DNA from: a virus
Taxonomy: Duplodnaviria > Caudoviricetes
Length of the DNA stretch: 48,345 nt
Direction: 5' to 3' (one strand)
Virus record (IMG/VR): IMGVR_UViG_3300037782_000051
Location: 1-48,345 of that record
A program made the position numbers and the translations under genes. Each line of letters opens with the position of its first letter. Position 1 is the first letter of the stretch. Shown here piece after piece: positions 5,912 to 47,218 of this stretch. The notes under the pieces are model-generated. The model saw nothing but the letters and a program-made list of their open reading frames with translations. It ran no database searches and was not told where the DNA came from.

Positions 5912-6087
5912 AAGACGAAAAATTTGAAATTCGCCATTTGCGCATGGAGATAAAACGCGAAACAGCCTGCGCTCAGCAAGCGGAGGATTGCGGCAAACAT
6001 GAGCTTGCTAAAGCCTATCGGCAGGGGCTGAAGGGTAAGAAAAAGAGGTTGAAGGAATTGGAGGTTAGACGGGGAGGTTGTGTGTAG
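5908..6087 (+). CDS. 59-aa basic hypothetical protein whose stop lies in the first attC-like half-site
   Basis: Manual translation MKDEKFEIRHLRMEIKRE...KELEVRRGGCV*. Confidence 0.6.
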   Translation: MKDEKFEIRHLRMEIKRETACAQQAEDCGKHELAKAYRQGLKGKKKRLKELEVRRGGCV

Positions 6088-6096
6088 CTGTAGTTA
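6073..6096 (+). repeat. Truncated attC-like site (right arm only)
   Basis: GGAGGTTGTGTGTAGCTGTAGTTA is 23/24 identical to 9469-9492. No left arm is present upstream. Confidence 0.8.
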
Positions 6097-6228
6097 TACC
6101 TAGCGAAACCAATAAATGTTCCGGCTGCTGGAGGATGCGGAAGCAGCTAGAGAAACCAATATCGGGCATCCACATTTATTCATCATCGCCTATTCCTTTT
6201 GGCATGGGGCGCTAAAATCTTATTTAAA

Positions 6229-6438
6229 ATGGAAACGACTTACATCATAATCAACCCAAAAACCAATTCTTACTTTGAGGGTTTTTTTGCTGGAAATACC
6301 AACCAGATTACATGGACAGATGATTATTCTGAAGCTGTACATTATTCCTCTGTAGAAGAAATAGAGAACGCAAACTTCTATGTAAAGGGAGATATTCATA
6401 AAGTTGAACATAAAATTAGCGCCCTAGCTAGGGTATAA
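6229..6438 (+). CDS. Cassette 1 cargo (cassette 6093-6439), hypothetical 69 aa
   Basis: ATG after TTTAAA; the stop TAA lies within the TAAC core. Confidence 0.75.
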   Translation: METTYIIINPKTNSYFEGFFAGNTNQITWTDDYSEAVHYSSVEEIENANFYVKGDIHKVEHKISALARV

Positions 6439-6495
6439 CGTACAAGTACTGGCGCTGTGCCGACTGTAAGGAGGTATAGGCGCTAGTACGTTGGT
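6437..6495 (+). repeat. attC-like hairpin 1 (AAC...GGT)
   Basis: GTACTGGCGC/GCGCTAGTAC stem with apical CCGACTGTAAGGAGG. Confidence 0.8.
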
Positions 6496-6625
6496 GTACG
6501 ACGGCTACCAATAGATAGTCGGCTGAGCGACAGTAGGAGCCAGCTAAAGAAACTCTACTCAGGCATCATCTTGTATCAATAGAATTTATTTCAAAGGGCA
6601 GTGCGCCCTTAAAACTATAATTACA

Positions 6626-6874
6626 ATGAATCCTTTTCAACCCTTTAATTACCCTAATCAAAACGACCAATTAAGAAAGAATCAACATCAACAACCCAGA
6701 ACTAAATTTAAGGACATTCAGGTAGGGGACGTCTTTAAACTAGAATGGTCTGGAGGATATACTTTATTTGAAAAAAAATCTAAATCCACGGCAATTGTAT
6801 TAGAATCAGAAATCAAATCTCCTGTTTTTGAGGTTGGAGATATTGAAAATTTCAATCCTAATTCACTTATTTAG
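6626..6874 (+). CDS. Cassette 2 cargo (cassette 6493-6893), hypothetical 82 aa
   Basis: ATG 133 nt after the GGT core; the TAG abuts the inner repeat GGCGCAC. Confidence 0.75.
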   Translation: MNPFQPFNYPNQNDQLRKNQHQQPRTKFKDIQVGDVFKLEWSGGYTLFEKKSKSTAIVLESEIKSPVFEVGDIENFNPNSLI

Positions 6875-6890
6875 GCGCACGCTGTCGTAC

Positions 6891-6954
6891 ACCGTACAGG
6901 GCTACACGCCGTGCTGCTGGGGACTCGGTTGGGGCATGGTGTGTAGCTGTAGTT
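6891..6954 (+). repeat. attC-like hairpin 2 (ACC...GTT)
   Basis: GCTACACGCCGTGC/GCATGGTGTGTAGC stem. Confidence 0.85.
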
Positions 6955-7083
6955 ATGCACCGGCTTAATTCTAATCATACGGCCCTGCGACAATAGGAGC
7001 TGGGCTTAAGAAATTATAATCGGGCAATATTGCCTTTCATTTCAAGGCTCATTCTTCGGGTGCGCCGCTTAAATCAAATTAAA

Positions 7084-7371
7084 ATGACAACATTAGAGCA
7101 AGTTAAAACAGTGCCTATCAATATTTTGCTTGAAAAAGTATGGCCCTGTGGTTTATGCTTAATGCGAGATTGTATGTGGATTGCTTTCTGGGAAAATGAA
7201 GATGAAGAAACGGCCTATACTCAAGATTCAGATTCTTTTGAAGATTTTATTTACAGGGTGATTGCAGATCAAATTGAAAACGGAGATGTTGACCATGAAG
7301 GTTTTAATCACATATCAATTGACTTTGCTATAGCATCAGTTGAGTACAATGAAGCGGCGGCTGGTGCATAA
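7084..7371 (+). CDS. Cassette 3 cargo (cassette 6952-7372), acidic hypothetical 95 aa
   Basis: ATG at 7084 after an A-rich stretch; the stop lies in the TAAC core. Confidence 0.75.
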   Translation: MTTLEQVKTVPINILLEKVWPCGLCLMRDCMWIAFWENEDEETAYTQDSDSFEDFIYRVIADQIENGDVDHEGFNHISIDFAIASVEYNEAAAGA

Positions 7372-7435
7372 CGTGCAGAGCTACCCGCCGTACAGCTTAG
7401 GCCGAGCGTTGGCGTATGGCGGGTAGCGTGTAGTT
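7370..7435 (+). repeat. attC-like hairpin 3 (AAC...GTT)
   Basis: GCTACCCGCCGTAC/GTATGGCGGGTAGC stem. Confidence 0.85.
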
Positions 7436-7567
7436 ATACCTAGCGAAACCAATAAATGTTCCGGCTGCTGGAGGATGCGGAAGCAGCTAGAGAAACCAAT
7501 ACCGGGCATCCATATTTATTCATCATTGCTTAATCCTTTTGGCAGGTGCGGCATAAATTAATCAGAA

Positions 7568-7876
7568 ATGAAATACCCTGAATCAATAATCAAAAAGCTA
7601 GTAATTGCATTTATTGTCATTCTTATATTCAATGCAATTATTTTTTACAGAATGGGGTATCACCAATCAAAGGTTGACATCGCCCACGAATACCCAATCT
7701 TCAATTTGAAAAATGAAGTCTTCAACGATGTTGAGTTTGAAGATGGAATGATATACTTTATGGGCGGTGTCAGCCATAATCACACAGTATACACCTATGA
7801 ATCTGATACATTAATTTTCTTATTCACATATCACCCAATGTCTGGTGTTTTTCTTGAAAAAGAATTGCCGCACTAG
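7568..7876 (+). CDS. Cassette 4 cargo (cassette 7433-7888), N-terminal membrane-anchored protein
   Basis: KKLVIAFIVILIFNAIIFY hydrophobic segment; leader nearly identical to cassette 1. Confidence 0.75.
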   Translation: MKYPESIIKKLVIAFIVILIFNAIIFYRMGYHQSKVDIAHEYPIFNLKNEVFNDVEFEDGMIYFMGGVSHNHTVYTYESDTLIFLFTYHPMSGVFLEKELPH

Positions 7877-7885
7877 CTAGGGTAT

Positions 7886-7942
7886 AACGGACGAGTACTG
7901 GCGCAGGCCTGAGGTACGAAGGCTTGGCGCTAGTATGTTGGT
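7886..7942 (+). repeat. attC-like hairpin 4 (AAC...GGT)
   Basis: GTACTGGCGC/GCGCTAGTAT stem with apical CCTGAGGTACGAAGG; same family as hairpin 1. Confidence 0.82.
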
Positions 7943-8072
7943 GTGTGCAGTTAAACCCTTAATCATAGGGTGAGCGACAGTAGGAGCGAACAAGAACAAA
8001 CCCACAACGGGTATCACAATAATTCTTTCACAGTCTAATCCTCCGGGAGCGGGCGCTTAAAACTTAATTACG

Positions 8073-8342
8073 ATGAAACAAGAATTGAATTTTATGGATG
8101 TTGATCTCGGTCACTTTGATACCGAATCGAAAACTTTTCACCCTAATATAGATAATGTAAAATCAATTGAAGTGATGGGGGAAAACAATTGCAACAATCC
8201 AGAAATTATGGGGTCTATTGAAATTGTATGTTACGATGAAAAATGGGATTGGCCAATTTTCATGTGGGTTAGAGAAGATAAGATAACACTATCAACAAGT
8301 GTATCGTATAGCAACCGCCGAAAAGTAATTTATCTTTCTTAG
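8073..8342 (+). CDS. Cassette 5 cargo (cassette 7940-8360), hypothetical 89 aa
   Basis: ATG 133 nt after the GGT core. Confidence 0.75.
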   Translation: MKQELNFMDVDLGHFDTESKTFHPNIDNVKSIEVMGENNCNNPEIMGSIEIVCYDEKWDWPIFMWVREDKITLSTSVSYSNRRKVIYLS

Positions 8343-8357
8343 CGACCGATTGCACAC

Positions 8358-8417
8358 ACCGGACGGGGCTACCCGGCGTATGGAGCGCAGCGTAATATGA
8401 TCGGGTAGCATAGTGTT
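8358..8417 (+). repeat. attC-like hairpin 5 (ACC...GTT)
   Basis: GCTACCCGG/TCGGGTAGC stem. Confidence 0.78.
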
Positions 8418-8538
8418 GGGTGCAGGCGTACAAATAATAGTGCGGCGAGTGACGATAGGAACGAGTGACAAGAAACCCTAAACTGGTATTTATTAATTCC
8501 TTTCTTTACTCTTAATCGGGGTAGAGCAGGGAGCGAAG

Positions 8539-8626
8539 AACGGTTGGGTGTATGGTGTGTAGCTGACACCACTAACTTTCGGCTAAAGAACTAATGTTTA
8601 ATCTGCTATACACTATATATTGTGTT
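8539..8626 (+). repeat. Nested longer attC-like hairpin of a different family inside cassette 6
   Basis: AAC...GTGTATGGTGTGTAGC / GCTATACACTATATAT...GTT; all non-Watson-Crick pairs in this stem are G-T. Confidence 0.72.
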
Positions 8627-8648
8627 AGCCACCGTAAATACTAAGATT

Positions 8649-8879
8649 ATGATTTTAGAAACAGGATTCAAACTACCACGAGATAAAGGCGTGATTCGAT
8701 TTGGTGATGTACTTAAAAGTAGTATGACACATGATGTAGTAGTAATGTTCCATCAAGGACAGAAGAAACCTATCGTAAAAGTGATAGATGAAGATATTTG
8801 GTTTGAACTTGAAGAGTTTCTTGACTCATGTGGTTCACGTCTTGAAATTAGCCACAACATTAATTATTATTGTGGCTAA
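8649..8879 (+). CDS. Nested cassette cargo (GTTAGCCAC 8624 ... GTGGCTAAT 8880) within cassette 6 (8415-8950); weakly YopX-like
   Basis: ATG at 8649. IRFGDVL...LEISHNI loosely recalls the YopX C-terminal pattern. Confidence 0.65.
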   Translation: MILETGFKLPRDKGVIRFGDVLKSSMTHDVVVMFHQGQKKPIVKVIDEDIWFELEEFLDSCGSRLEISHNINYYCG

Positions 8880-8921
8880 TACTTATCCATGTTCAACATT
8901 TCATTGAATATAGATATAGTT
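8878..8921 (+). repeat. Degenerate nested attC-like hairpin (AAT...GTT)
   Basis: TATCCATGTTCAA/TTGAATATAGATA imperfect stem. Confidence 0.55.
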
Positions 8922-8947
8922 CTTCCCTCCCTGCGGAGCTTGCACCC

Positions 8948-9003
8948 AACGTACAGGGCTACACGCAGGCGCGAGGCACGAGTGCTTGTGTGTAGCTGTA
9001 GTT
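8948..9003 (+). repeat. attC-like hairpin 6 (AAC...GTT)
   Basis: TACAGG-GCTACACGCAGGC/GCTTGTGTGTAGC-TGTA with apical GCGAGGCACGAGT. Confidence 0.85.
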
Positions 9004-9133
9004 ATGCACCGTTTTAACCAGCAGTAGACGAGCCGTAGTGTGCGAAGGCGGGTGACTAATTAATCGGGTAACAAACAATTATTATTTATTCATTTTTATC
9101 TGGCGGCTTAATCGTCAGCAAAACACAACAATC

Positions 9134-9409
9134 ATGCAAACATCAAAAAGAACTGAAATTCATGTAAACCAGCGAATGATTGAAATTCTATCTAAAGGCG
9201 ATTATATCCCATCGCTAGAGGAAGAATTTCAGATCAATTATACCACACGCGGGGTACTTCGCAATGATACCTTAAAGGTTGTAAAAATTGAAGATGAAAC
9301 ACACACAAGTGAACCAACTCAATTTCTACCTGAGATAGAAACCGTTGTAACAAAAATTCACTGTGAAGTTGTAAAGAACCATCATAAACAAAGATTTTCA
9401 TCATATTGA
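9134..9409 (+). CDS. Cassette 7 cargo (cassette 9001-9431), hypothetical 91 aa
   Basis: ATG 133 nt after the GTT core; bracketed by TGGCGGCT/AGCCGCCA. Confidence 0.75.
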   Translation: MQTSKRTEIHVNQRMIEILSKGDYIPSLEEEFQINYTTRGVLRNDTLKVVKIEDETHTSEPTQFLPEIETVVTKIHCEVVKNHHKQRFSSY

Positions 9410-9428
9410 TAGCCGCCAAATGGTGCAT

Positions 9429-9491
9429 AACGTACAGGGCTACACGCAGCCTGTTCAGCCCTCGCGTTGGAGGTTGCGTGTAGCTGTAGTT
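9429..9491 (+). repeat. attC-like hairpin 7 (AAC...GTT)
   Basis: GCTACACGCAGCCT/AGGTTGCGTGTAGC stem. Confidence 0.85.
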
Positions 9492-9616
9492 AGGTACTGC
9501 GAAACAACTAAATGGTCAAGGCGGCGATAGCAAGCCGGGTGACTATAACAACAGGCATCAAACCAGTATTCATCATTCATTTTCTTCGGGCGACTGCCAG
9601 CGTAAATAATAATCGA

Positions 9617-10252
9617 ATGCAAAACAAATTCTTAAATATTGATTGTATGGACGAGCGGGAAGGGCTGCCGTCTTATCCTGATAATTTCTTTGATCTTGCT
9701 ATTGTAGATCCACCTTATGGGTTAGATATAGGTAATTCTCCTAGAATTGTAACAGATAAGGGTATCAAGGGCAAGTCTTGGGATTCAATGATACCTGATA
9801 GAGAATACTTTGAACAGTTAAATCGGGTATCTAAAAATCAAATTATTTGGGGCTGGAATTATTTTGTCCCATTTTTATCTTCTTGTCAATGCTATATCGT
9901 TTGGTACAAGCATCAACCTGTCAAATCTTTTGCAGATTGTGAAAGTGCTTATACATCGTTCAAAAGACCCGCTGTTGTTTTTGACTTTAGATACTATGGG
10001 AATATTGAAGGCGGGACAAAAGCTAGTTTGAAAATTCATCCTACTCAAAAACCAATAAAGCTGTATCAAAGGACTTTAACGGAATTTGCCAAACCGGGCG
10101 ACCTTATTCTTGATACTCATGTTGGTTCTGCATCATCATTAATCGCTTTTGAAAGTATGGGATTCAATTACCATGCTTTTGAAATTGATGAAGATTATTA
10201 TAAGGCAGCCCTGGAGCGCATGCGGGCGGGCATTCAAACAGCAATTTTTTAG
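9617..10252 (+). CDS. Cassette 8 cargo (cassette 9489-10273): N6-adenine/N4-cytosine DNA methyltransferase, beta-class motif order
   Basis: Catalytic DPPY, then HPTQKP, then SAM-binding ILDTHVGSAS and FEIDEDYY. Confidence 0.9.
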   Translation: MQNKFLNIDCMDEREGLPSYPDNFFDLAIVDPPYGLDIGNSPRIVTDKGIKGKSWDSMIPDREYFEQLNRVSKNQIIWGWNYFVPFLSSCQCYIVWYKHQPVKSFADCESAYTSFKRPAVVFDFRYYGNIEGGTKASLKIHPTQKPIKLYQRTLTEFAKPGDLILDTHVGSASSLIAFESMGFNYHAFEIDEDYYKAALERMRAGIQTAIF

Positions 10253-10270
10253 CTGGCAGTAGTAGTACCT

Positions 10271-10335
10271 AACGGACAAAGCTACACGCTGCCACGCCCA
10301 GCCCTCGGTTCGCCGGTAGCGTGTAGCGTGATGGT
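10271..10335 (+). repeat. attC-like hairpin 8 (AAC...GGT)
   Basis: GCTACACGCTGCC/GGTAGCGTGTAGC stem. Confidence 0.85.
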
Positions 10336-10482
10336 GTGTGATGTGATATTCAAATAACTGAGCTGCGACGATAGGAGCGCGGCTGTATTAATACCCCCGA
10401 GCCTGTGGAGGCCGGGGGAGAATGAACTAAATTTTTTCATGGCCTAACCCTACTCGGGCAGGCAGGCGTAAAATAATTTTAA

Positions 10483-10671
10483 ATGAAAGATCAAAAGAAA
10501 AGTGTTGAAAATAAACCTAAAAGAAAACCTTGGAATTACGGGAAAAGAAAACCCATTGTAGATGAAATGGGGAATAAATGGTGTAATTGCATAGAACCAA
10601 AACTAACTTCTAATTCAGGTGTAGGTGGTCAAGCATATTGTTTAAAATGTCATTCAAATTGGTATCATTAG
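10483..10671 (+). CDS. Cassette 9 cargo (cassette 10333-10690), small basic Zn-ribbon-like protein
   Basis: CNC...CLKCH cysteine pairs. Confidence 0.65.
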   Translation: MKDQKKSVENKPKRKPWNYGKRKPIVDEMGNKWCNCIEPKLTSNSGVGGQAYCLKCHSNWYH

Positions 10672-10687
10672 CCTGCCCATATCACAC

Positions 10688-10743
10688 ACCGGACGGGGCT
10701 ACACGCAGGGCTGAGGTACGAAGCCTTGAGTGTAGCTGTAGTT
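10688..10743 (+). repeat. attC-like hairpin 9 (ACC...GTT)
   Basis: GCTACACGCAGGGC/GCCTTGAGTGTAGC stem with apical CTGAGGTACGAAG. Confidence 0.85.
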
Positions 10744-10891
10744 ACATGGCGTTTTAACCTATAATAGTCAAGCAGCGACAGTAGGAGCGCGGGTGACTTT
10801 TCTACTCAGCTACAAACCCTTTCCAATCCTGTCTATTCCGTGTGCGGCCCTAAACTAAATATACTTTGTGTATAAAATAATTGATATAAAA

Positions 10892-10924
10892 CTTGCGCGT
10901 GTGGTATACTTATTGTATATTGCA
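10892..10924 (+). promoter_or_regulatory. Promoter inside cassette 10 (CTTG-N20-TATATTGCA)
   Basis: Same spacing as 5311 and 32051; followed by an A-rich leader. Confidence 0.65.
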
Positions 10925-10953
10925 GCATCATTAACAACAAAACAATATAAATC

Positions 10954-11184
10954 ATGAAAAAGTACCTAGTAAATACCTTATTGAATATCATTCACGAGGT
11001 ATCTGAAATTGGAGGTGAAGTTGATCGCACAGATTTCATTCGTGCTGATGGAAGCAAAGGATGCGTTTTTGGTAAAGAATGGAAAACCATGCACGCAGAT
11101 AATGAGGAAGATATAAAAAATCACCTCCGAAAGCACAGAGAGTATTATTGCAGGATTAACGGATATAGCACTTTAGAACTTTAA
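10954..11184 (+). CDS. Cassette 10 (10741-11414) cargo gene 1, hypothetical 76 aa
   Basis: ATG after the promoter and A-rich leader. Confidence 0.75.
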   Translation: MKKYLVNTLLNIIHEVSEIGGEVDRTDFIRADGSKGCVFGKEWKTMHADNEEDIKNHLRKHREYYCRINGYSTLEL

Positions 11185-11227
11185 CCCAAGCCCCCGCGAT
11201 AACATCAACGGGGCTAAATCTTTTATT

Positions 11228-11413
11228 GTGGATAAAATCATTTCTATCTACCTCGAAAACCAAACCGAGAAAGCAAATCGGCTTGGTAAACACCGTCAAA
11301 CATTAGTGGCTTGGAAACGCAACCCTTCTCAGGCTAGCTTGCAATTGATCGAAGAAGACCTTAAAGCGCTTCTTCTTCTAATACAAGAATACAAGACCGC
11401 AAATGCCATGTAA
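11228..11413 (+). CDS. Cassette 10 cargo gene 2, HTH-like 61 aa
   Basis: QTEKANRLGKHRQTLVAWKRNP resembles an HTH; GTG start; the stop lies in the TAAC core. Confidence 0.6.
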   Translation: MDKIISIYLENQTEKANRLGKHRQTLVAWKRNPSQASLQLIEEDLKALLLLIQEYKTANAM

Positions 11414-11426
11414 CTACATAACACCC

Positions 11427-12114: not shown

Positions 12115-12152
12115 TTTGTAGTTTTACATCAACAACAACAAAGCAATTGCAA

Positions 12153-12995
12153 ATGAAAACAGTAACATCAATATCAGGCGGAAAAACATCTGCTTATCTT
12201 GCTACTCATTACCCTACTGATTACAACGTTTTCTCTTTGGTTAGAATAGAGGACAAAAGTGCTGCGTTCCCTGATAAGAAAATTAGGCAAATAGTAGAGG
12301 ATAAAATCCAAAAGCAATTTATTGCTACAGCTGAAGATGATACTATCATTTACACAATTCTTGATCTTGAGCAGCATATCGGCAGAAAGATACATTGGGT
12401 ATCAGGCGACACCTTTGACAGCGTTATCGAACAAAAAGGCGGTTATCTTCCTAACAAGATGCAACGTTTTTGCACTTCAGAAATGAAGTTAAAGCCTATT
12501 TTTTATTGGTGGGCAGAAACAATAAGCGAACCAATAAAAATGCAAATTGGCTACCGGGCTAATGAGCAAAGAAGAGCAAACACTATGCTATCTAAGTGCA
12601 ATGAAGACGGATTGCTCGAATATAAAGCAACATTTGAAAAGCACTCAAATGGGAACAATAAATGGGAGCAAATACCATGGCAAAAACCATCATTCCCGCT
12701 TATTGATAACGCTGTTTTTCGTGACCAGATAGAAAACTATTGGACTGGTCAAACCGTCCGTTTTGCTGATTACAATAACTGTGTCGGCTGCTTTCATCGA
12801 AACCCCTTATTTCTTCGTAAGATGTGGGATAAACATCCAGCTAAGATGGATTGGTTTGAATCAAAAGAAACAGGGCCGAAAAACCCAAATTGGAGATCTG
12901 ATATATCTTATTCACAAATTAAGCAGCACCGCCCTCAATTTGAATTAGATTTTTCAGATTTTTCAGATTGCGATTCTGGATACTGCGGAATGTAA
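12153..12995 (+). CDS. PAPS-reductase-like (PP-loop) protein with Cys clusters
   Basis: SISGGKTS PP-loop, RFCTSEMK, IGYRANE, NCVGCF and terminal CDSGYCG. Confidence 0.8.
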   Translation: MKTVTSISGGKTSAYLATHYPTDYNVFSLVRIEDKSAAFPDKKIRQIVEDKIQKQFIATAEDDTIIYTILDLEQHIGRKIHWVSGDTFDSVIEQKGGYLPNKMQRFCTSEMKLKPIFYWWAETISEPIKMQIGYRANEQRRANTMLSKCNEDGLLEYKATFEKHSNGNNKWEQIPWQKPSFPLIDNAVFRDQIENYWTGQTVRFADYNNCVGCFHRNPLFLRKMWDKHPAKMDWFESKETGPKNPNWRSDISYSQIKQHRPQFELDFSDFSDCDSGYCGM

Positions 12996-14708: not shown

Positions 14709-16289
14709 TTAATTTTTCACTGCCTTGCGCTCGATAGTATTCTGCGCGAAAGTGACAGTATTGATTTGTGAAAATGTCCTCTTTATGTTCGACACTGTCT
14801 TGCGCCGTGGTGCGTCTAGCTGCGAACGCTGCCCGGCAACTTCAGTGATTATTGTCTCAATCTGTACATCGTACCCTGCACGCTTCATCAGCATCTCATA
14901 AAAGTGCCGCACCCAAAACGTCATATCGAGCTTGTCGTCTGTAGCATTTAGCACAAAAGCCCGGTTGGTGAAGAACTCAGCAGTAGCAAGTGTAATCGCC
15001 TCAACAGCATCTTCAGCATACAGCTTGCTATCATAGCGCACTGTTAGCCTAACTTCATCGGTATAAAACTTTCCTGAGCCAAACGGCTTCCACATCACAG
15101 GATAGTTGTCTGATAACTTGACAATGATAGTGCGCTTGTCCTTTTCCGGCTGATCTGGTTCGTCCGGTTCATCTGGTTCGTCATCATTCGGCGTATCGGG
15201 GTTGCCGTTATGTTCATCGCTGTAGCTTTCCGGGTTGACGTCCTTAAGCGCTGTCAGGATATTAACGCCATATCCATACTTTTCATCCCATCCTTGCGGG
15301 CCTAAGCCCACCGCATTAGCACGCAGGCAGTTGCTCACCTGCTTAGCTGTAGCGTTCGATGTAGCCCCTAGAATAGCAGCTATTGCTGCCTGTGTAGGCG
15401 TTGCCATCGAAGTGCCTGACAGTTCAGCGTAACCACCGTTAAGCCATGCGCCGTACACCCGGACGCCTGCCCCTGACATATAGAGCTGTGGCCCGTAGTT
15501 GCTAAAGCCTGCAATAGTGCCTGAGTTGTCAATTGCTCCGATAGCGTGCGCACTTGTCCCGTTTGCCGGAGTGCCGATGAAGTTCTGCCCGTTGTTACCA
15601 GCAGCTGCAAGAACAAGCACGCCAGCATCTTCAGCTTTCTCAATAGCGCTGTTGAATTGCTCATTAACGCTTTGGCTGCCTAGCGAAAAATTAAAGATGA
15701 CAAACCAACCATCATCAATCAGCTTTTTTGCTTCTGCTGTGCCTGTCTCGATGCCTGTAACGATTTGGCTTGTATAGCCATAGCCCTCCTTTCGCAAGAC
15801 TTTGTAGAAGATCAGCTTCAGGTTATCGCCTAAGATAGATGCAGGCCCAAGCTTGTAGTTAAACTCATGCTTGCCTGCAATGCAGGTGCCTACGTGTATG
15901 CCATGCCCATGCTTTGCGCTTGCAGGCTCTCCTGTAAATATTTTATCTTTCTCAGGCCACGCGAAATCCTCAAGGCTCTTATGCCCTGCTTCGCCTTCAG
16001 TATCGAAGACGAACACCGCCACCTTGCGCTTGATACGCTCCTTAATCCACGCCTCGTTCTGAGCCACGCGGTAGTAATCGTACGCCCAATTGCCGTTCGC
16101 GTCAGCGGTGGCAAGGCTTGGTATCATCGGTATCTGCTCGATCGGGTCAAGGAAGACCTTTCCCGGCCCTTGATTCTCCTGAATGAAGCGCTCAATACGC
16201 TTGTACTCATTTGAATACTCATCAGGCACAGGCTGTGCGAAGAGCGTAAAAGTAACTGCTGTTAGTAGCAGTATCAGTAGATTCTTCAT
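14709..16289 (-). CDS. Subtilisin-like S8 serine protease with signal peptide
   Basis: VFVFDT, HGHGIHVG, AAAGN and GTSMATP catalytic motifs; N-terminal MKNLLILLLTAVTFTLFA|Q. Confidence 0.9.
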   Translation of the reverse strand: MKNLLILLLTAVTFTLFAQPVPDEYSNEYKRIERFIQENQGPGKVFLDPIEQIPMIPSLATADANGNWAYDYYRVAQNEAWIKERIKRKVAVFVFDTEGEAGHKSLEDFAWPEKDKIFTGEPASAKHGHGIHVGTCIAGKHEFNYKLGPASILGDNLKLIFYKVLRKEGYGYTSQIVTGIETGTAEAKKLIDDGWFVIFNFSLGSQSVNEQFNSAIEKAEDAGVLVLAAAGNNGQNFIGTPANGTSAHAIGAIDNSGTIAGFSNYGPQLYMSGAGVRVYGAWLNGGYAELSGTSMATPTQAAIAAILGATSNATAKQVSNCLRANAVGLGPQGWDEKYGYGVNILTALKDVNPESYSDEHNGNPDTPNDDEPDEPDEPDQPEKDKRTIIVKLSDNYPVMWKPFGSGKFYTDEVRLTVRYDSKLYAEDAVEAITLATAEFFTNRAFVLNATDDKLDMTFWVRHFYEMLMKRAGYDVQIETIITEVAGQRSQLDAPRRKTVSNIKRTFSQINTVTFAQNTIERKAVKN

Positions 16290-31936: not shown

Positions 31937-32050
31937 GTTGCCTATTGATAGGGGCAAGCATAGGTGAGTGGTGGCAAGATACGAAAATACACGGAATGAT
32001 GCTGTTAAATGTTAAAATTTGCGTTTCTGTCAAAAATAATTAGGGTTTTA

Positions 32051-32083
32051 CTTGACACAAAGACAAAATAGCAGTAGATTGCA
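32051..32083 (+). promoter_or_regulatory. Promoter CTTG-N20-TAGATTGCA of the inverted three-gene island
   Basis: Same architecture as 5311 and 10892. A divergent TATCTTGC for the tape measure lies at 31974-31981 on the - strand. Confidence 0.65.
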
Positions 32084-32113
32084 GCATAATTAAAAAACAA
32101 AACAATAACAATC

Positions 32114-32587
32114 ATGGAGATCAAAGTAACAAATAGCAAAACATACAAAGGACGCAAAGAGAACTGGACAGAACAAAAAACTCGTTCTTTTCGATTAAAG
32201 TCAGATTTAGTTTGCGTTCACAAATCAGAACGTAAGATCAAGTCTTTTCAGTCTGGAGTAACGACCTGTGTATATGATGAATTTGATTCCAAAGAACAAC
32301 TGGAATCAATGACTTACGAACAAGCAAAAAAACACAATATAACTCGTGACTATACTCATATAGTACGCCCTGATAATAATCCTGATTACGTTTACACAAT
32401 GATTCTTCCTGCTGGGACTTATGTCGAAGAGTATGACAACGAATACCGATTCGAAATGTCTAGCGAAATTAAAATCAAATTAATTGGAACAATGGGTCGG
32501 GTTAGAATTACAGACGAAGAGCTACATCCTTATGAGTGTTCAGTATATGGAGGGAAGTGGATTAATGTATTCACAAAAAAAATATAA
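32114..32587 (+). CDS. Hypothetical protein (moron-like island gene 1)
   Basis: AT-rich ORF opposite to the structural genes, with its own promoter. Confidence 0.75.
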   Translation: MEIKVTNSKTYKGRKENWTEQKTRSFRLKSDLVCVHKSERKIKSFQSGVTTCVYDEFDSKEQLESMTYEQAKKHNITRDYTHIVRPDNNPDYVYTMILPAGTYVEEYDNEYRFEMSSEIKIKLIGTMGRVRITDEELHPYECSVYGGKWINVFTKKI

Positions 32588-32591
32588 TGTA

Positions 32592-32795
32592 ATGACAAAA
32601 GAGCAACTCCAATCAGAAATATCAAGCCGCTTCGCATCTAACAGCGATTTCATCAGCGCATTCAACGCGCTAGGTGGCAGCCTTTCGCTTGATGTAATTA
32701 GCCATCAGCTTGCAGGCCGTAGAGGATTAAGCAAGATGGCTGTATCTGCTTACACATTCTTCTTCAAATTACATGACTTAACAACAGAGCAATGA
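32592..32795 (+). CDS. Small HTH-like protein (island gene 2)
   Basis: ATG at 32592; SNSDFISAF...LSLDVISHQLAGRRGLS pattern. Confidence 0.6.
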   Translation: MTKEQLQSEISSRFASNSDFISAFNALGGSLSLDVISHQLAGRRGLSKMAVSAYTFFFKLHDLTTEQ

Positions 32796-32995
32796 AACCT
32801 ACAAAAAAAGGACAGCGATTTACTACTTCAGTAGTTCAGGGGTTATTCAAGGTCAAATGCTTCTTTGGCAAATCAGGTGTCGAGTATGACACCTACCAAG
32901 AGGCAAAGCGTGCCAACCCGACAGGATTTATTTTGATTCGCCCGGTAGGCTCAGATGGTTCAGTGCAAGCAAACCTCTGCGAGCTTGCCGAATAA
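32792..32995 (+). CDS. Hypothetical protein (island gene 3)
   Basis: ATGA overlap with gene 2. Confidence 0.65.
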   Translation: MKPTKKGQRFTTSVVQGLFKVKCFFGKSGVEYDTYQEAKRANPTGFILIRPVGSDGSVQANLCELAE

Positions 32996-33009
32996 CACTA
33001 TCAACAACA

Positions 33010-33035
33010 AAGCGCCCTGCAAATGTGGGGCGCTT
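33010..33035. terminator. Hairpin between convergent genes
   Basis: AAGCGCCC...GGGCGCTT. Confidence 0.6.
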
Positions 33036-33387
33036 ACTTTTTCCGCTCCTGCGCCTTCGCTTTCTTCTTAACCGCCTCTAAGGTCCTAAAAAACTCAAGC
33101 ACCGTCATGATCTTCGGGTCTTTGGTCACGTGCTGCTGCATCGCAATGCAAACGTCTTCAAAACTTACTACCGTTTTGGCTTCAACGCCGTTCGGCCCCC
33201 AAAACTGTTGCGGTGCTGTAGAGGACAATAGCTGCCCGTCAAGCGTATCAATTTTGCTTTGTTCTATGTCTTTGCCTGTAATCTGCTCAAGCATCAGTAA
33301 CGCCCGCTGTTTGAGCTTCAGGTATTGCTGCTTAATTTTGCCGGATTCCTTTTGTGCCGGGAAATAAAGCTCCATTTCCCCATCCAC
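33034..33387 (-). CDS. Tail assembly chaperone, frameshift extension (gpT-like)
   Basis: Opens in the -1 frame exactly at the A9G run of the upstream ORF. Confidence 0.7.
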   Translation of the reverse strand: MDGEMELYFPAQKESGKIKQQYLKLKQRALLMLEQITGKDIEQSKIDTLDGQLLSSTAPQQFWGPNGVEAKTVVSFEDVCIAMQQHVTKDPKIMTVLEFFRTLEAVKKKAKAQERKK

Positions 33388-45573: not shown

Positions 45574-47218
45574 TTTGGATTGCTTTTTTCAGTTCATTCA
45601 GCTTTTCAAGCCGCTTGGTTTTGTTGCTGTCATCCGGCAAAACCTGCTTTGCGACATCAAGCAGCTCAAGTGCAATTTCATCATCCCCTGCTGCAAAGGC
45701 TTGCCCTGCCCTACTTAGGTAAGACCTGAACGCTGCACCTGATTGCTTGCGTTTCGGTTGCGTTTCGCCTGTTTCGCTATCTGTTGCGTTTGTTGCGCCT
45801 TCTGTTGCGCCTGTTGCACTATCATCATTCTGAGGGGAAGCAGAGTAGGTGCTTGCCTGATAGGTGTCAACACTGCTCATTGTACTTGCTGAGCTACTGT
45901 ACTGCTGCCTTGCTTGCTGTGCTTCTTGCCTCATTCTGATTTGTGCCGCTTCATTTTCTTGTTGCGCCCGCTGTTGCGCCTGTTGCGCCTGTTGCGCCCT
46001 TTGTTGCGCTTTTTGCATTGCTGTCTGATGCGCGACTAAACCTACCTGAGCATTGACAGTAGGGTGGGATGCAACAAGGTATTCAGCAATAGCAGCATTG
46101 TAAGCGCTTGAGGATTTTCCGACAGACTTCGCAACTCTTACCATTCGCTTGCTGCCTTCTTCTTTGAAGTACGCGGGCACCTGTGCAACCATCGTTACAA
46201 AGTAAGTGTAGATACTGCCTACCATATCGCCGAACACATCTGTAATACCTGGCTTGTCAGGGAAGAACGTCTCCATTGTATCATCGCTGTGGACGATGTG
46301 AAAAGCGACAAGCCAAGAGCAGAAGAAGCCGCCAACAACCAAGATGAAGTCGAGTAAGTAGTAGGTCCAGCGCTCGGCAGTGTAGAGCGTGTTTTCTGCC
46401 CATATTTGCGTATCTAGTTCCTTTTTGATATGCTGCCATTTCGGGTTGTTCCGCTCCTGATATAGCTTTTCCTGCATTGCAGCAAGGATTTTTGCCTTGC
46501 TATCTTTTCCAGCTTTAATAACTGCTTTTGCTTCCTTTGCTGCTGCTGCTTCTATGTCATAAGCTTTTTTCTCTGCCGCCTTAATCTCAAGTGAATACTC
46601 TGCTCTAATCCAGTCTTTGTTAGCGTAATCCCGCTGTTCTGCGGGACTACCTTGCTTAATAGCAGTTTCTACCGTTCTGCGTGCGAGCTGCTCAGCGTCT
46701 GCTTTTATTTGCGCGGCTTCTCGTTCTGAGCGCTCAATCGCTTTGTCTGCCTCTGCCTTATATGTAGATTCAATTCGTGCGAGCGCCTGCGTTTTGTCTT
46801 CCTCGAATGACTGTATCTTTTCGAGCGCATCTGATTCTGCCTGCTTGCCTACAACAGTACTCTCGCCAGTCAGGTAAGTAGCACCACCAGAGAAGAAAAA
46901 CCGGCCTGCCATAAGGGCAAACAGTATCAGCGTTGCAAAACCGCCTTTTTTGTAGATCTTCCAAAAGCCGCCCTGTTCTATTGCCTGTGCCAATGCAGCA
47001 ACAGAATTTTCGTACAGCGCATTATCAATGAGGTAGGTAATTACAAGCGCTGCGCCTACGACAAGCACAGACTCCCAAACAGGCGGCAGCATAATGCTGC
47101 CGCCTAATGCGCTTTCGCATACCCGGTAGGCCATCCATGCCGTTGTTACCATTAAGCCAAAGAACAAGCCTTTAGCGAGAGTGTGGATTTTGAATATGAT
47201 TTTTGCTATATATCCCAT
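45566..47218 (-). CDS. Multi-pass membrane protein with long coiled coils (550 aa)
   Basis: Three N-terminal hydrophobic segments, an A/E/K coiled coil, a further TM segment, then Q/A repeats and an S/T linker. Confidence 0.75.
   Translation of the reverse strand: MGYIAKIIFKIHTLAKGLFFGLMVTTAWMAYRVCESALGGSIMLPPVWESVLVVGAALVITYLIDNALYENSVAALAQAIEQGGFWKIYKKGGFATLILFALMAGRFFFSGGATYLTGESTVVGKQAESDALEKIQSFEEDKTQALARIESTYKAEADKAIERSEREAAQIKADAEQLARRTVETAIKQGSPAEQRDYANKDWIRAEYSLEIKAAEKKAYDIEAAAAKEAKAVIKAGKDSKAKILAAMQEKLYQERNNPKWQHIKKELDTQIWAENTLYTAERWTYYLLDFILVVGGFFCSWLVAFHIVHSDDTMETFFPDKPGITDVFGDMVGSIYTYFVTMVAQVPAYFKEEGSKRMVRVAKSVGKSSSAYNAAIAEYLVASHPTVNAQVGLVAHQTAMQKAQQRAQQAQQAQQRAQQENEAAQIRMRQEAQQARQQYSSSASTMSSVDTYQASTYSASPQNDDSATGATEGATNATDSETGETQPKRKQSGAAFRSYLSRAGQAFAAGDDEIALELLDVAKQVLPDDSNKTKRLEKLNELKKAIQNG

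Follow-up and report, generated by a model that had tools for sequence, protein, structure and literature searches.

Mirror-orientation integron-like cassettes in a Bacteroidota-type phage reuse one backbone for unrelated genes

Two gene cassettes in a phage genome, C1 and C4, share nearly identical leaders and the same tail and carry unrelated genes. We consider it probable, though well short of certain, that they are mirror integron-like cassettes with a reused backbone, in which a host tyrosine recombinase shuffles whole units and short-homology recombination loads new genes. The window, meaning the whole analysed stretch of 48,345 nucleotides, is a complete 48-kb phage genome with a 126-nt terminal overlap and genes for terminase, DnaB helicase and amidase. 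The phage is of Bacteroidota type, and Bacteroidota account for every named host shown among 75 cultured phages with a related portal. Saprospiraceae are its likely host, because the same cassette elements occur on another phage-like contig, unrelated to this phage, in a Phaeodactylibacter MAG. Neither a tyrosine recombinase (no PF00589 match) nor a reverse transcriptase (no PF00078 match) was found in the phage by Pfam scans of 56 ORFs and six-frame family searches, and a search for viral relatives of DnaB, the C4 protein and the ORF at 32792 returned none. Elsewhere in the window, short tandem repeats occupy 45760-46017 within a 550-aa ORF of no family, and a subtilase (Peptidase_S8) gene at 14709-16289 lies near a holin-like gene.

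The cassette array and the features discussed with it are located as follows.

6070..11414, + strand: array of ten mirror-orientation cassettes (C1 to C10), whose 5' arms start at 6093, 6493, 6952, 7433, 7940, 8415, 9001, 9489, 10333 and 10741
6070..6092, + strand: attC-like hairpin of C1, right half only
6093..6204, + strand: C1 leader, comprising outer arm (6093-6104), A/T spacer, P2 and pyrimidine-rich tract
6123-6148, + strand: P2 hairpin of C1, with a purine-rich loop
6207..6213, + strand: 5' arm of the C1 inner clamp, pairing with 6418-6424
6229..6438, + strand: C1 cargo, 69 aa, reading across the clamp to a stop within the backbone tail
6418..6439, + strand: C1 3' arms (inner 6418-6424, outer 6427-6439), with stops in three frames
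6437..6495, + strand: GTACTGGCGC-type attC-like hairpin, belonging to the downstream unit C2
7370..7435, + strand: attC-like hairpin of C4, with a putative crossover between 7371 and 7372
7433..7544, + strand: C4 leader, with P2 at 7463-7488
7546..7553, + strand: 5' arm of the C4 inner clamp, pairing with 7866-7873
7568..7876, + strand: C4 cargo, 102 aa, with a hydrophobic N-terminal segment
7866..7888, + strand: C4 3' arms (inner 7866-7873, outer 7876-7888)
7886..7942, + strand: GTACTGGCGC-type attC-like hairpin, belonging to the downstream unit C5
8576..8879, + strand: short-leader mirror cassette, apparently nested in the internal landing site of C6
11414..11480, - strand: constant right flank, putatively attI-like, whose same base is abutted by four backbone types
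12153..12995, + strand: free-standing PAPS-reductase-like gene outside the array, followed by a terminator-like hairpin
33009..33034, + strand: terminator-like hairpin with the C1-type inner arms in swapped order

Each unit opens with a 13-nt outer arm (GTT/GGT), followed by an A/T spacer, the P2 hairpin, a pyrimidine-rich tract, a GC-rich inner arm and the ORF; the complements of the inner and then the outer arm close it, ending in AAC or ACC, and hairpins of 56-66 nt stand between the units of the array. Three of the ten window units have ACC/GGT cores. Across 24 complete units from the window and its relatives, with three arms read with one bulge each, the 312 outer-arm positions comprise 276 Watson-Crick, 24 G.T, 1 A.C and 11 other pairs, and position 11 is G in 25/25 leaders. 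The first and last 13 nt of each unit pair with each other and not with those of neighbouring units (p<1e-4), a value that, like the other p-values given here for array units, overstates independence because the units are kin to one another. Relatives differ in how far the left end of their array is cut back.

The initial annotation had reported that the 112-nt leaders at 6093-6204 and 7433-7544 differ at only five positions, and our comparison bears this out (107/112 identical); the next most similar of the 45 leader pairs in the array reaches 67% identity. C1 and C4 also share, as described there, the same 15-nt tail, each followed by a GTACTGGCGC-type hairpin. Their cargo is indeed unrelated: the 69-aa and 102-aa proteins give no BLASTP alignment at E<=100, which speaks against diverged paralogues. 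Besides itself, the C4 protein has one homologue (83%, with the same C-terminal residues) on a 40.9-kb contig, and none was found for the C1 protein. The leader has no BLASTN match among cultured phages, and tblastn gave no match to the C1 protein. Atlas matches for both cargo proteins were all below 0.9, and the predicted fold of the C1 cargo, which we treat as a lead only, may resemble small phage proteins. That the duplicate leader is an assembly artefact seems hardly credible to us. Contigs of run X1, a possible source of the window, do end at the repeat, no piece covers the whole stretch, and these contigs alone leave the order of the two leader copies unfixed. However, the 73 nt shared by both copies form a node at depth 15.6, whereas its neighbours lie at 8.2-10.1, and this double depth implies that two leader copies exist; the five differences sit in separate contigs, and other studies contain the same backbone with other cargo.

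Two levels of modularity within a reusable scaffold had been proposed from the window alone, and the relatives agree. On inspection, 9/37 metagenome loci, 1/4 genome loci and three viral contigs were kept as true elements; the remaining 28/37 metagenome and 3/4 genome loci were chance matches. Complete units with a C1/C4-type leader and tail are C1, C4, L027c, L105b and L108e, and they hold five unrelated ORFs. When L006a (leader only) and L020a (tail only) are included, the seven cargo proteins show no mutual BLASTP hits at E<0.01. Four more runs, drawn from three studies, contain leader and tail sequence but lack 6220-6411, their joints running from 6208 to 6417 or 6418. Backbones of other types are reused as well: the C3-type backbone holds three unrelated ORFs, the leaders of C9 and L043a are 86% identical while their ORFs and clamps differ, and the C8-type backbone carries N6/N4 methyltransferases or a Mom-like gene. 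An empty chassis, which the initial annotation had suggested looking for, was not seen among the units examined.

Related phages are present in run X2 at very high depth, with many variants of the array. Mosaic methyltransferase alleles, their ends common and their middles exchanged, occur at 9617-10252 of the window and in L006, L025 and L032. C6-type units (8415-8950; L105 1598-2523; L108 ~9061-9427) act as docking cassettes, with a long clamp around a constant internal site, at which the inserts differ across the window, L105 and L108, two of them having features of short-leader cassettes. Multi-gene cargo (10741-11414; L013, L035, L108 and L029 6061-6882) combines promoter-like DNA and a variable ORF with a separator hairpin and a small ORF, the last of which does not vary among C10-type units.

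The inner repeats of C1 and C4 differ, as had been stated, but calling them unrelated overstated the case: the arms can be aligned, and that of L108e is intermediate. Nor are cargo and clamp exchanged together as a rule, as had been supposed, since one clamp is common to four of the five complete C1/C4-type units. The C4 clamp is therefore a related variant or a replacement, and the clamp usually stays with its backbone, the unit at 7433 being the exception; a joint change of clamp and cargo is seen in that unit and in two pairs, C9 versus L043a and L020b versus L029a. Inner arms pair better with their own partners than with permuted ones (n=24, p<1e-4), the clamp being weak in C5 and C10 and missing in L043b. 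Because the extended arm of Polaribacter phage P12002L ends at the ORF boundaries, we suggest that the clamp forms the far end of an extended R-box stem. A 9-mer of one C1-type inner arm has just two occurrences, at 6205 and at 33026. In L020, a terminator-like hairpin of the 33009-33034 type replaces the leader and joins the cassette. The 32000-33045 region is a moron-like + strand island in the structural region, with a promoter-like leader, small ORFs and a terminator, and in L020 the terminator of this island leads into the cassette array.

Within the leader, P2 shows covariation, with 82.8% of positions paired versus 66.6% when shuffled and at most 47.8% in slid controls. Its support rests on these covariation counts, because RNAalifold returned no consensus structure for the MAFFT leader alignment and just 8/25 P2 folds reach z<=-2. 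The P2 loop motif also tops the attC-like hairpins of hosts and of P12002L. The C-rich tract contains 174 C and 77 G, a rut/boxB-like role being one reading considered for it, and an antisense ORF within the leader is not conserved.

The initial annotation had counted the GTACTGGCGC hairpins after C1 and C4 as part of their scaffold. At 24 junctions, the ends of the hairpin vary with the arm downstream (correlation r=0.41, p=2e-4) but show no correlation with the upstream arm (r=-0.06, p=0.80), and a GTACTGGCGC hairpin follows C1/C4-type tails in only 2/6 cases, both within the window. Since their ends track the downstream units, these hairpins are instead a property of C2 and C5. Terminal units stop at AAC without an intact hairpin. 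The + strand is the better fold in 9/9 full window hairpins, and 131/204 (64%) of the unpaired hairpin bases are purines; G.T pairs and purine skew are marks of the attC bottom strand (PMC5027507). Pairing extends to 95.7% of aligned hairpin cells, and the AAC-GTT pairing is kept, with the outer A-T and C-G pairs present in 20/20 aligned hairpins and a unit-dependent middle base. The RYYYAAC / GTTRRRY consensus fits just 2/10 window units (C6 and C8), and an extra base on the arm opposite AAC occurs in 5/20 aligned hairpins, most bulges lying on the AAC arm instead. In the phage, the nine full hairpins are clustered without an adjacent integrase.

A covariance model of the phage hairpins has matches in 7/150 Saprospiraceae genomes, one of them the phage-like contig. 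Seven host loci come from the other six genomes; among the matches listed, the ORFs beside these hairpins are encoded on the opposite strand, and none of the hairpins is followed by a long leader. The phage cassettes are therefore mirror images of host cassettes: their genes sit on the strand that acts as the attC bottom strand. Hairpin patterns, strict or loose, gave nothing real in viral contigs (two chance loci), and the strict pattern gave nothing real in genomes. In L022 (30-958, oriented), a mirror cassette has as its immediate neighbour a two-gene cassette in canonical orientation, which shares the 13-bp arms and the wobble at position 11; L060 (1-1150) contains an apparently gene-less cassette with 12-bp complementary ends beside a canonical intI.

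Units of the C10, C8, C7 and C6 types adjoin the right flank at one base (7 records), and a loose contig end from run X8 suggests that a C1-type unit may meet it too. The meeting of four backbone types at a single flank base points to site-specific shuffling of whole cassettes, with probable insertion at AA|C, and is the best evidence for it; as a pattern in the sequences, this whole-cassette tier appears well supported. The flank is constant, contains short direct repeats and may resemble attI1. No recombinase tied to the cassette sites was found in the phage or among the host candidates examined, and no excision circle was seen. Canonical IntI occurs in 3/301 host-family genomes (E<=1e-60); that of genome G001 was not used, as its 3-kb contig is unlinked to an array and looks foreign. 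A shorter Xer/IntI-like recombinase, present in 8/301 genomes (E<1e-65), adjoins related hairpins in L065 and L067. This candidate has a hairpin matching the model at 1/30 loci and is accompanied by a transposase-like ORF, putatively of IS91 type. In L073 (G112:C1 5214096-5223638), the recombinase and transposase-like unit stands in four tandem copies with a 2406-nt period; units of this kind have a conserved end, directly next to which attC-like hairpins lie in L065, L067 and L079.

Cargo junctions were compared in 20 single-ORF units with a clamp, leaving out multi-gene, clampless and incomplete units, L104, L105a/c and L108. The start codon lies 11-17 nt from the inner arm in 19/20 units, a distance that would match the length of the A-rich initiation region in Bacteroidota (PMC6847099), and the stop codon lies between 4 nt before the 3' arm and the inside of the tail in 20/20. 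In nine of the 17 non-redundant ORFs the reading frame continues into the backbone before it meets a stop, and TAG makes up 6/7 stops at the arm versus 5/48 in other window genes (p=1e-4). Cargo junctions thus cling to the ORF ends, and units with unrelated ORFs have the initiation region in common, up to or beyond the ATG. The initial annotation had placed the breakpoint just before the inner repeat. Identity at the 5' side does end before the clamp in C4, but it ends after the clamp in C1 versus L105b, at the ATG in C3 and L006a and a few bases into the ORF in L027c and L108e; a single exact breakpoint thus gives way to a spread of ~35 nt that begins just ahead of the clamp and reaches slightly beyond the start codon.

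A search for cargo homologues outside cassettes had also been suggested, and it succeeded: the PAPS-reductase-like gene stands free in the window, and its orthologue (245/280 aa) is cargo in L108. DNA homology between the free and the loaded gene covers 12151-12989 only, from 2 nt before the ATG to the last sense codons, and the loaded orthologue is exceptional in that its stop lies ~16 nt before the arm. Flavobacterium phage 2A has a short-leader mirror cassette with a 63% identical homologue of the RNA-ligase-like cargo of L027a, and an ordinary operon of phage lillamy9-1 includes a relative of the C8 methyltransferase. It is likely that ordinary phage genes get loaded into integron-like cassettes.

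CALINs have already been published in phage genomes, including that of P12002L (PMC9892861, Qi et al. 2023). Our array resembles them in its tandem single-gene units between attC-like hairpins, its lack of an integrase and its methyltransferase cargo, and resembles P12002L also in mirror polarity and in a leader hairpin with the same loop motif; it differs from the phage CALINs in its ~110-nt leader, separate inner stem and backbones recurring with unrelated ORFs. The portions of PMC9892861 consulted give no account of mirror polarity, leaders or backbone reuse. They do report that P12002L_attC1, which is of mirror type, was the sole failure with IntI1 among six phage sites; its oligonucleotide matches the gene-sense strand. 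The P12002L sites were read by eye, a generic attC scan having missed them. Canonical attC cassettes (PMC5027507, PMC5371416) likewise have an AAC/GTT-type core, an imperfect hairpin with an unpaired central spacer, G.T pairs and purines that favour one strand, and self-complementary cassette ends. Unlike them, the phage units encode their genes on the bottom strand and have a long conserved leader, arms of 13 bp that include a fixed wobble, ACC/GGT cores in 3/10 and bulges mostly on the AAC arm. Canonical polarity, with the ORF on the top strand and attC at its 3' side, does not hold, the phage ORFs lying on the folded strand. We set these cassettes apart from canonical members because three defining features fail, though they would work like integron cassettes. 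The short-leader cassettes of Flavobacterium phages 2A and 6H share the mirror polarity and, in 2A, the RNA-ligase-like gene, but have long hairpins and a ~40-nt leader, and in phage 2A no P2 and no separate inner clamp were seen. In the group IIC-attC intron model, terminator hairpins and the bottom strand of attC are linked to how cassettes are created (PMC7923331), whereas here there is no intron or reverse transcriptase, and the terminator-like arms seem to have been separated and placed in swapped order on either side of the ORF. Further comparison sources were PMC8618304 and bioRxiv 10.1101/2024.07.02.601686. Mirror cassettes with a reusable leader and clamp were not described in the titles or abstract openings of the integron and cassette papers listed, a scope that leaves aside subscription papers and bioRxiv supplements.

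In the explanation that we favour for C1 and C4, the sense strand would fold as single-stranded DNA and be cut at AA|C, and a candidate host tyrosine recombinase would excise and insert whole cassettes at this point. The inner clamp may lengthen the R-box stem of the excised circle and loop the ORF out. New cargo would be loaded at short homologies offered by inner arms, A-rich initiation regions and start/stop contexts, with one joint in an A-rich initiation region or at a start codon and the other in a stop region, and selection would keep products with an intact ORF and intact arms, the tail supplying the stop. We infer this loading tier from the junctions, and prefer short-homology recombination with selection to a second site-specific enzyme because the 5' junctions spread over ~35 nt. 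Against it, flanking DNA is nearly absent from the cargo, which is tighter than random capture suggests. Dedicated loading, in which an enzyme recognises the folded backbone and inserts a translation unit (mRNA or ssDNA) into the inner-stem loop as a cassette factory, is conceivable if rather doubtful. It would account for cargo that is almost exactly an initiation region plus an ORF, with 9/17 ORFs stopping in the backbone, for the covariation of P2 and, across unrelated phages, of the clamp arms, and for free and loaded genes whose homology is confined to the ORF. However, their flanks could have diverged anyway at 82% identity, the L108 stop lies ~16 nt before the arm, and the 5' junctions scatter over ~35 nt; the lack of an empty backbone among examined units and of a detected reverse transcriptase in the phage also counts against it, and cDNA from a mirror cassette mRNA would be the non-recombinogenic strand.

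Phage homologous recombination does act on these arrays, as the mismatched outer arms of L006a and the varied left-end deletions indicate. That it alone shuffles the units, the hairpins and leaders being expression signals and homology patches, would agree with the lack of a detected integrase in the phage and with the mosaic methyltransferase alleles and hairpin loops. We judge it unlikely, since differing units join the right flank at one base with few bases in common, the 13-nt ends of a unit pair with each other and not with those of neighbours, and host arrays use related hairpins. Retron ncRNAs carry a branching G after the 5' arm and have a linked reverse transcriptase. A retron- or intron-like RNA, in which the outer arms would be a1/a2, the leader msr and the cargo an insert in the msd loop, and which a host reverse transcriptase would copy, is very improbable here. 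The predicted three-way layout resembles retron RNA, and the wobble pairs all favour the sense strand, but an attC bottom strand would give the same strand bias; no conserved G was found after the outer arm, the PF00078 search that found no reverse transcriptase weighs here too, and no relevant Rfam match, including domain V, appeared at E<=5.

These data suggest that phages of Bacteroidota operate the cassette system of their hosts in mirror form. Placing the recombinogenic strand on the lagging-strand template raises excision (PMC5371416). If replication and transcription are codirectional in the phage, mirror polarity would put the recombinogenic strand on that template while the genes remain in the phage operon. 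The origin of integron cassettes has long been debated, and intermediates of the process seldom come to light. One backbone with many unrelated ORFs, a gene that occurs free and as cargo in the same group of phages, and few-base junctions make cassette creation testable in a defined system, and if dedicated loading were true, these phages would be factories that turn ordinary genes into integron-type cassettes.
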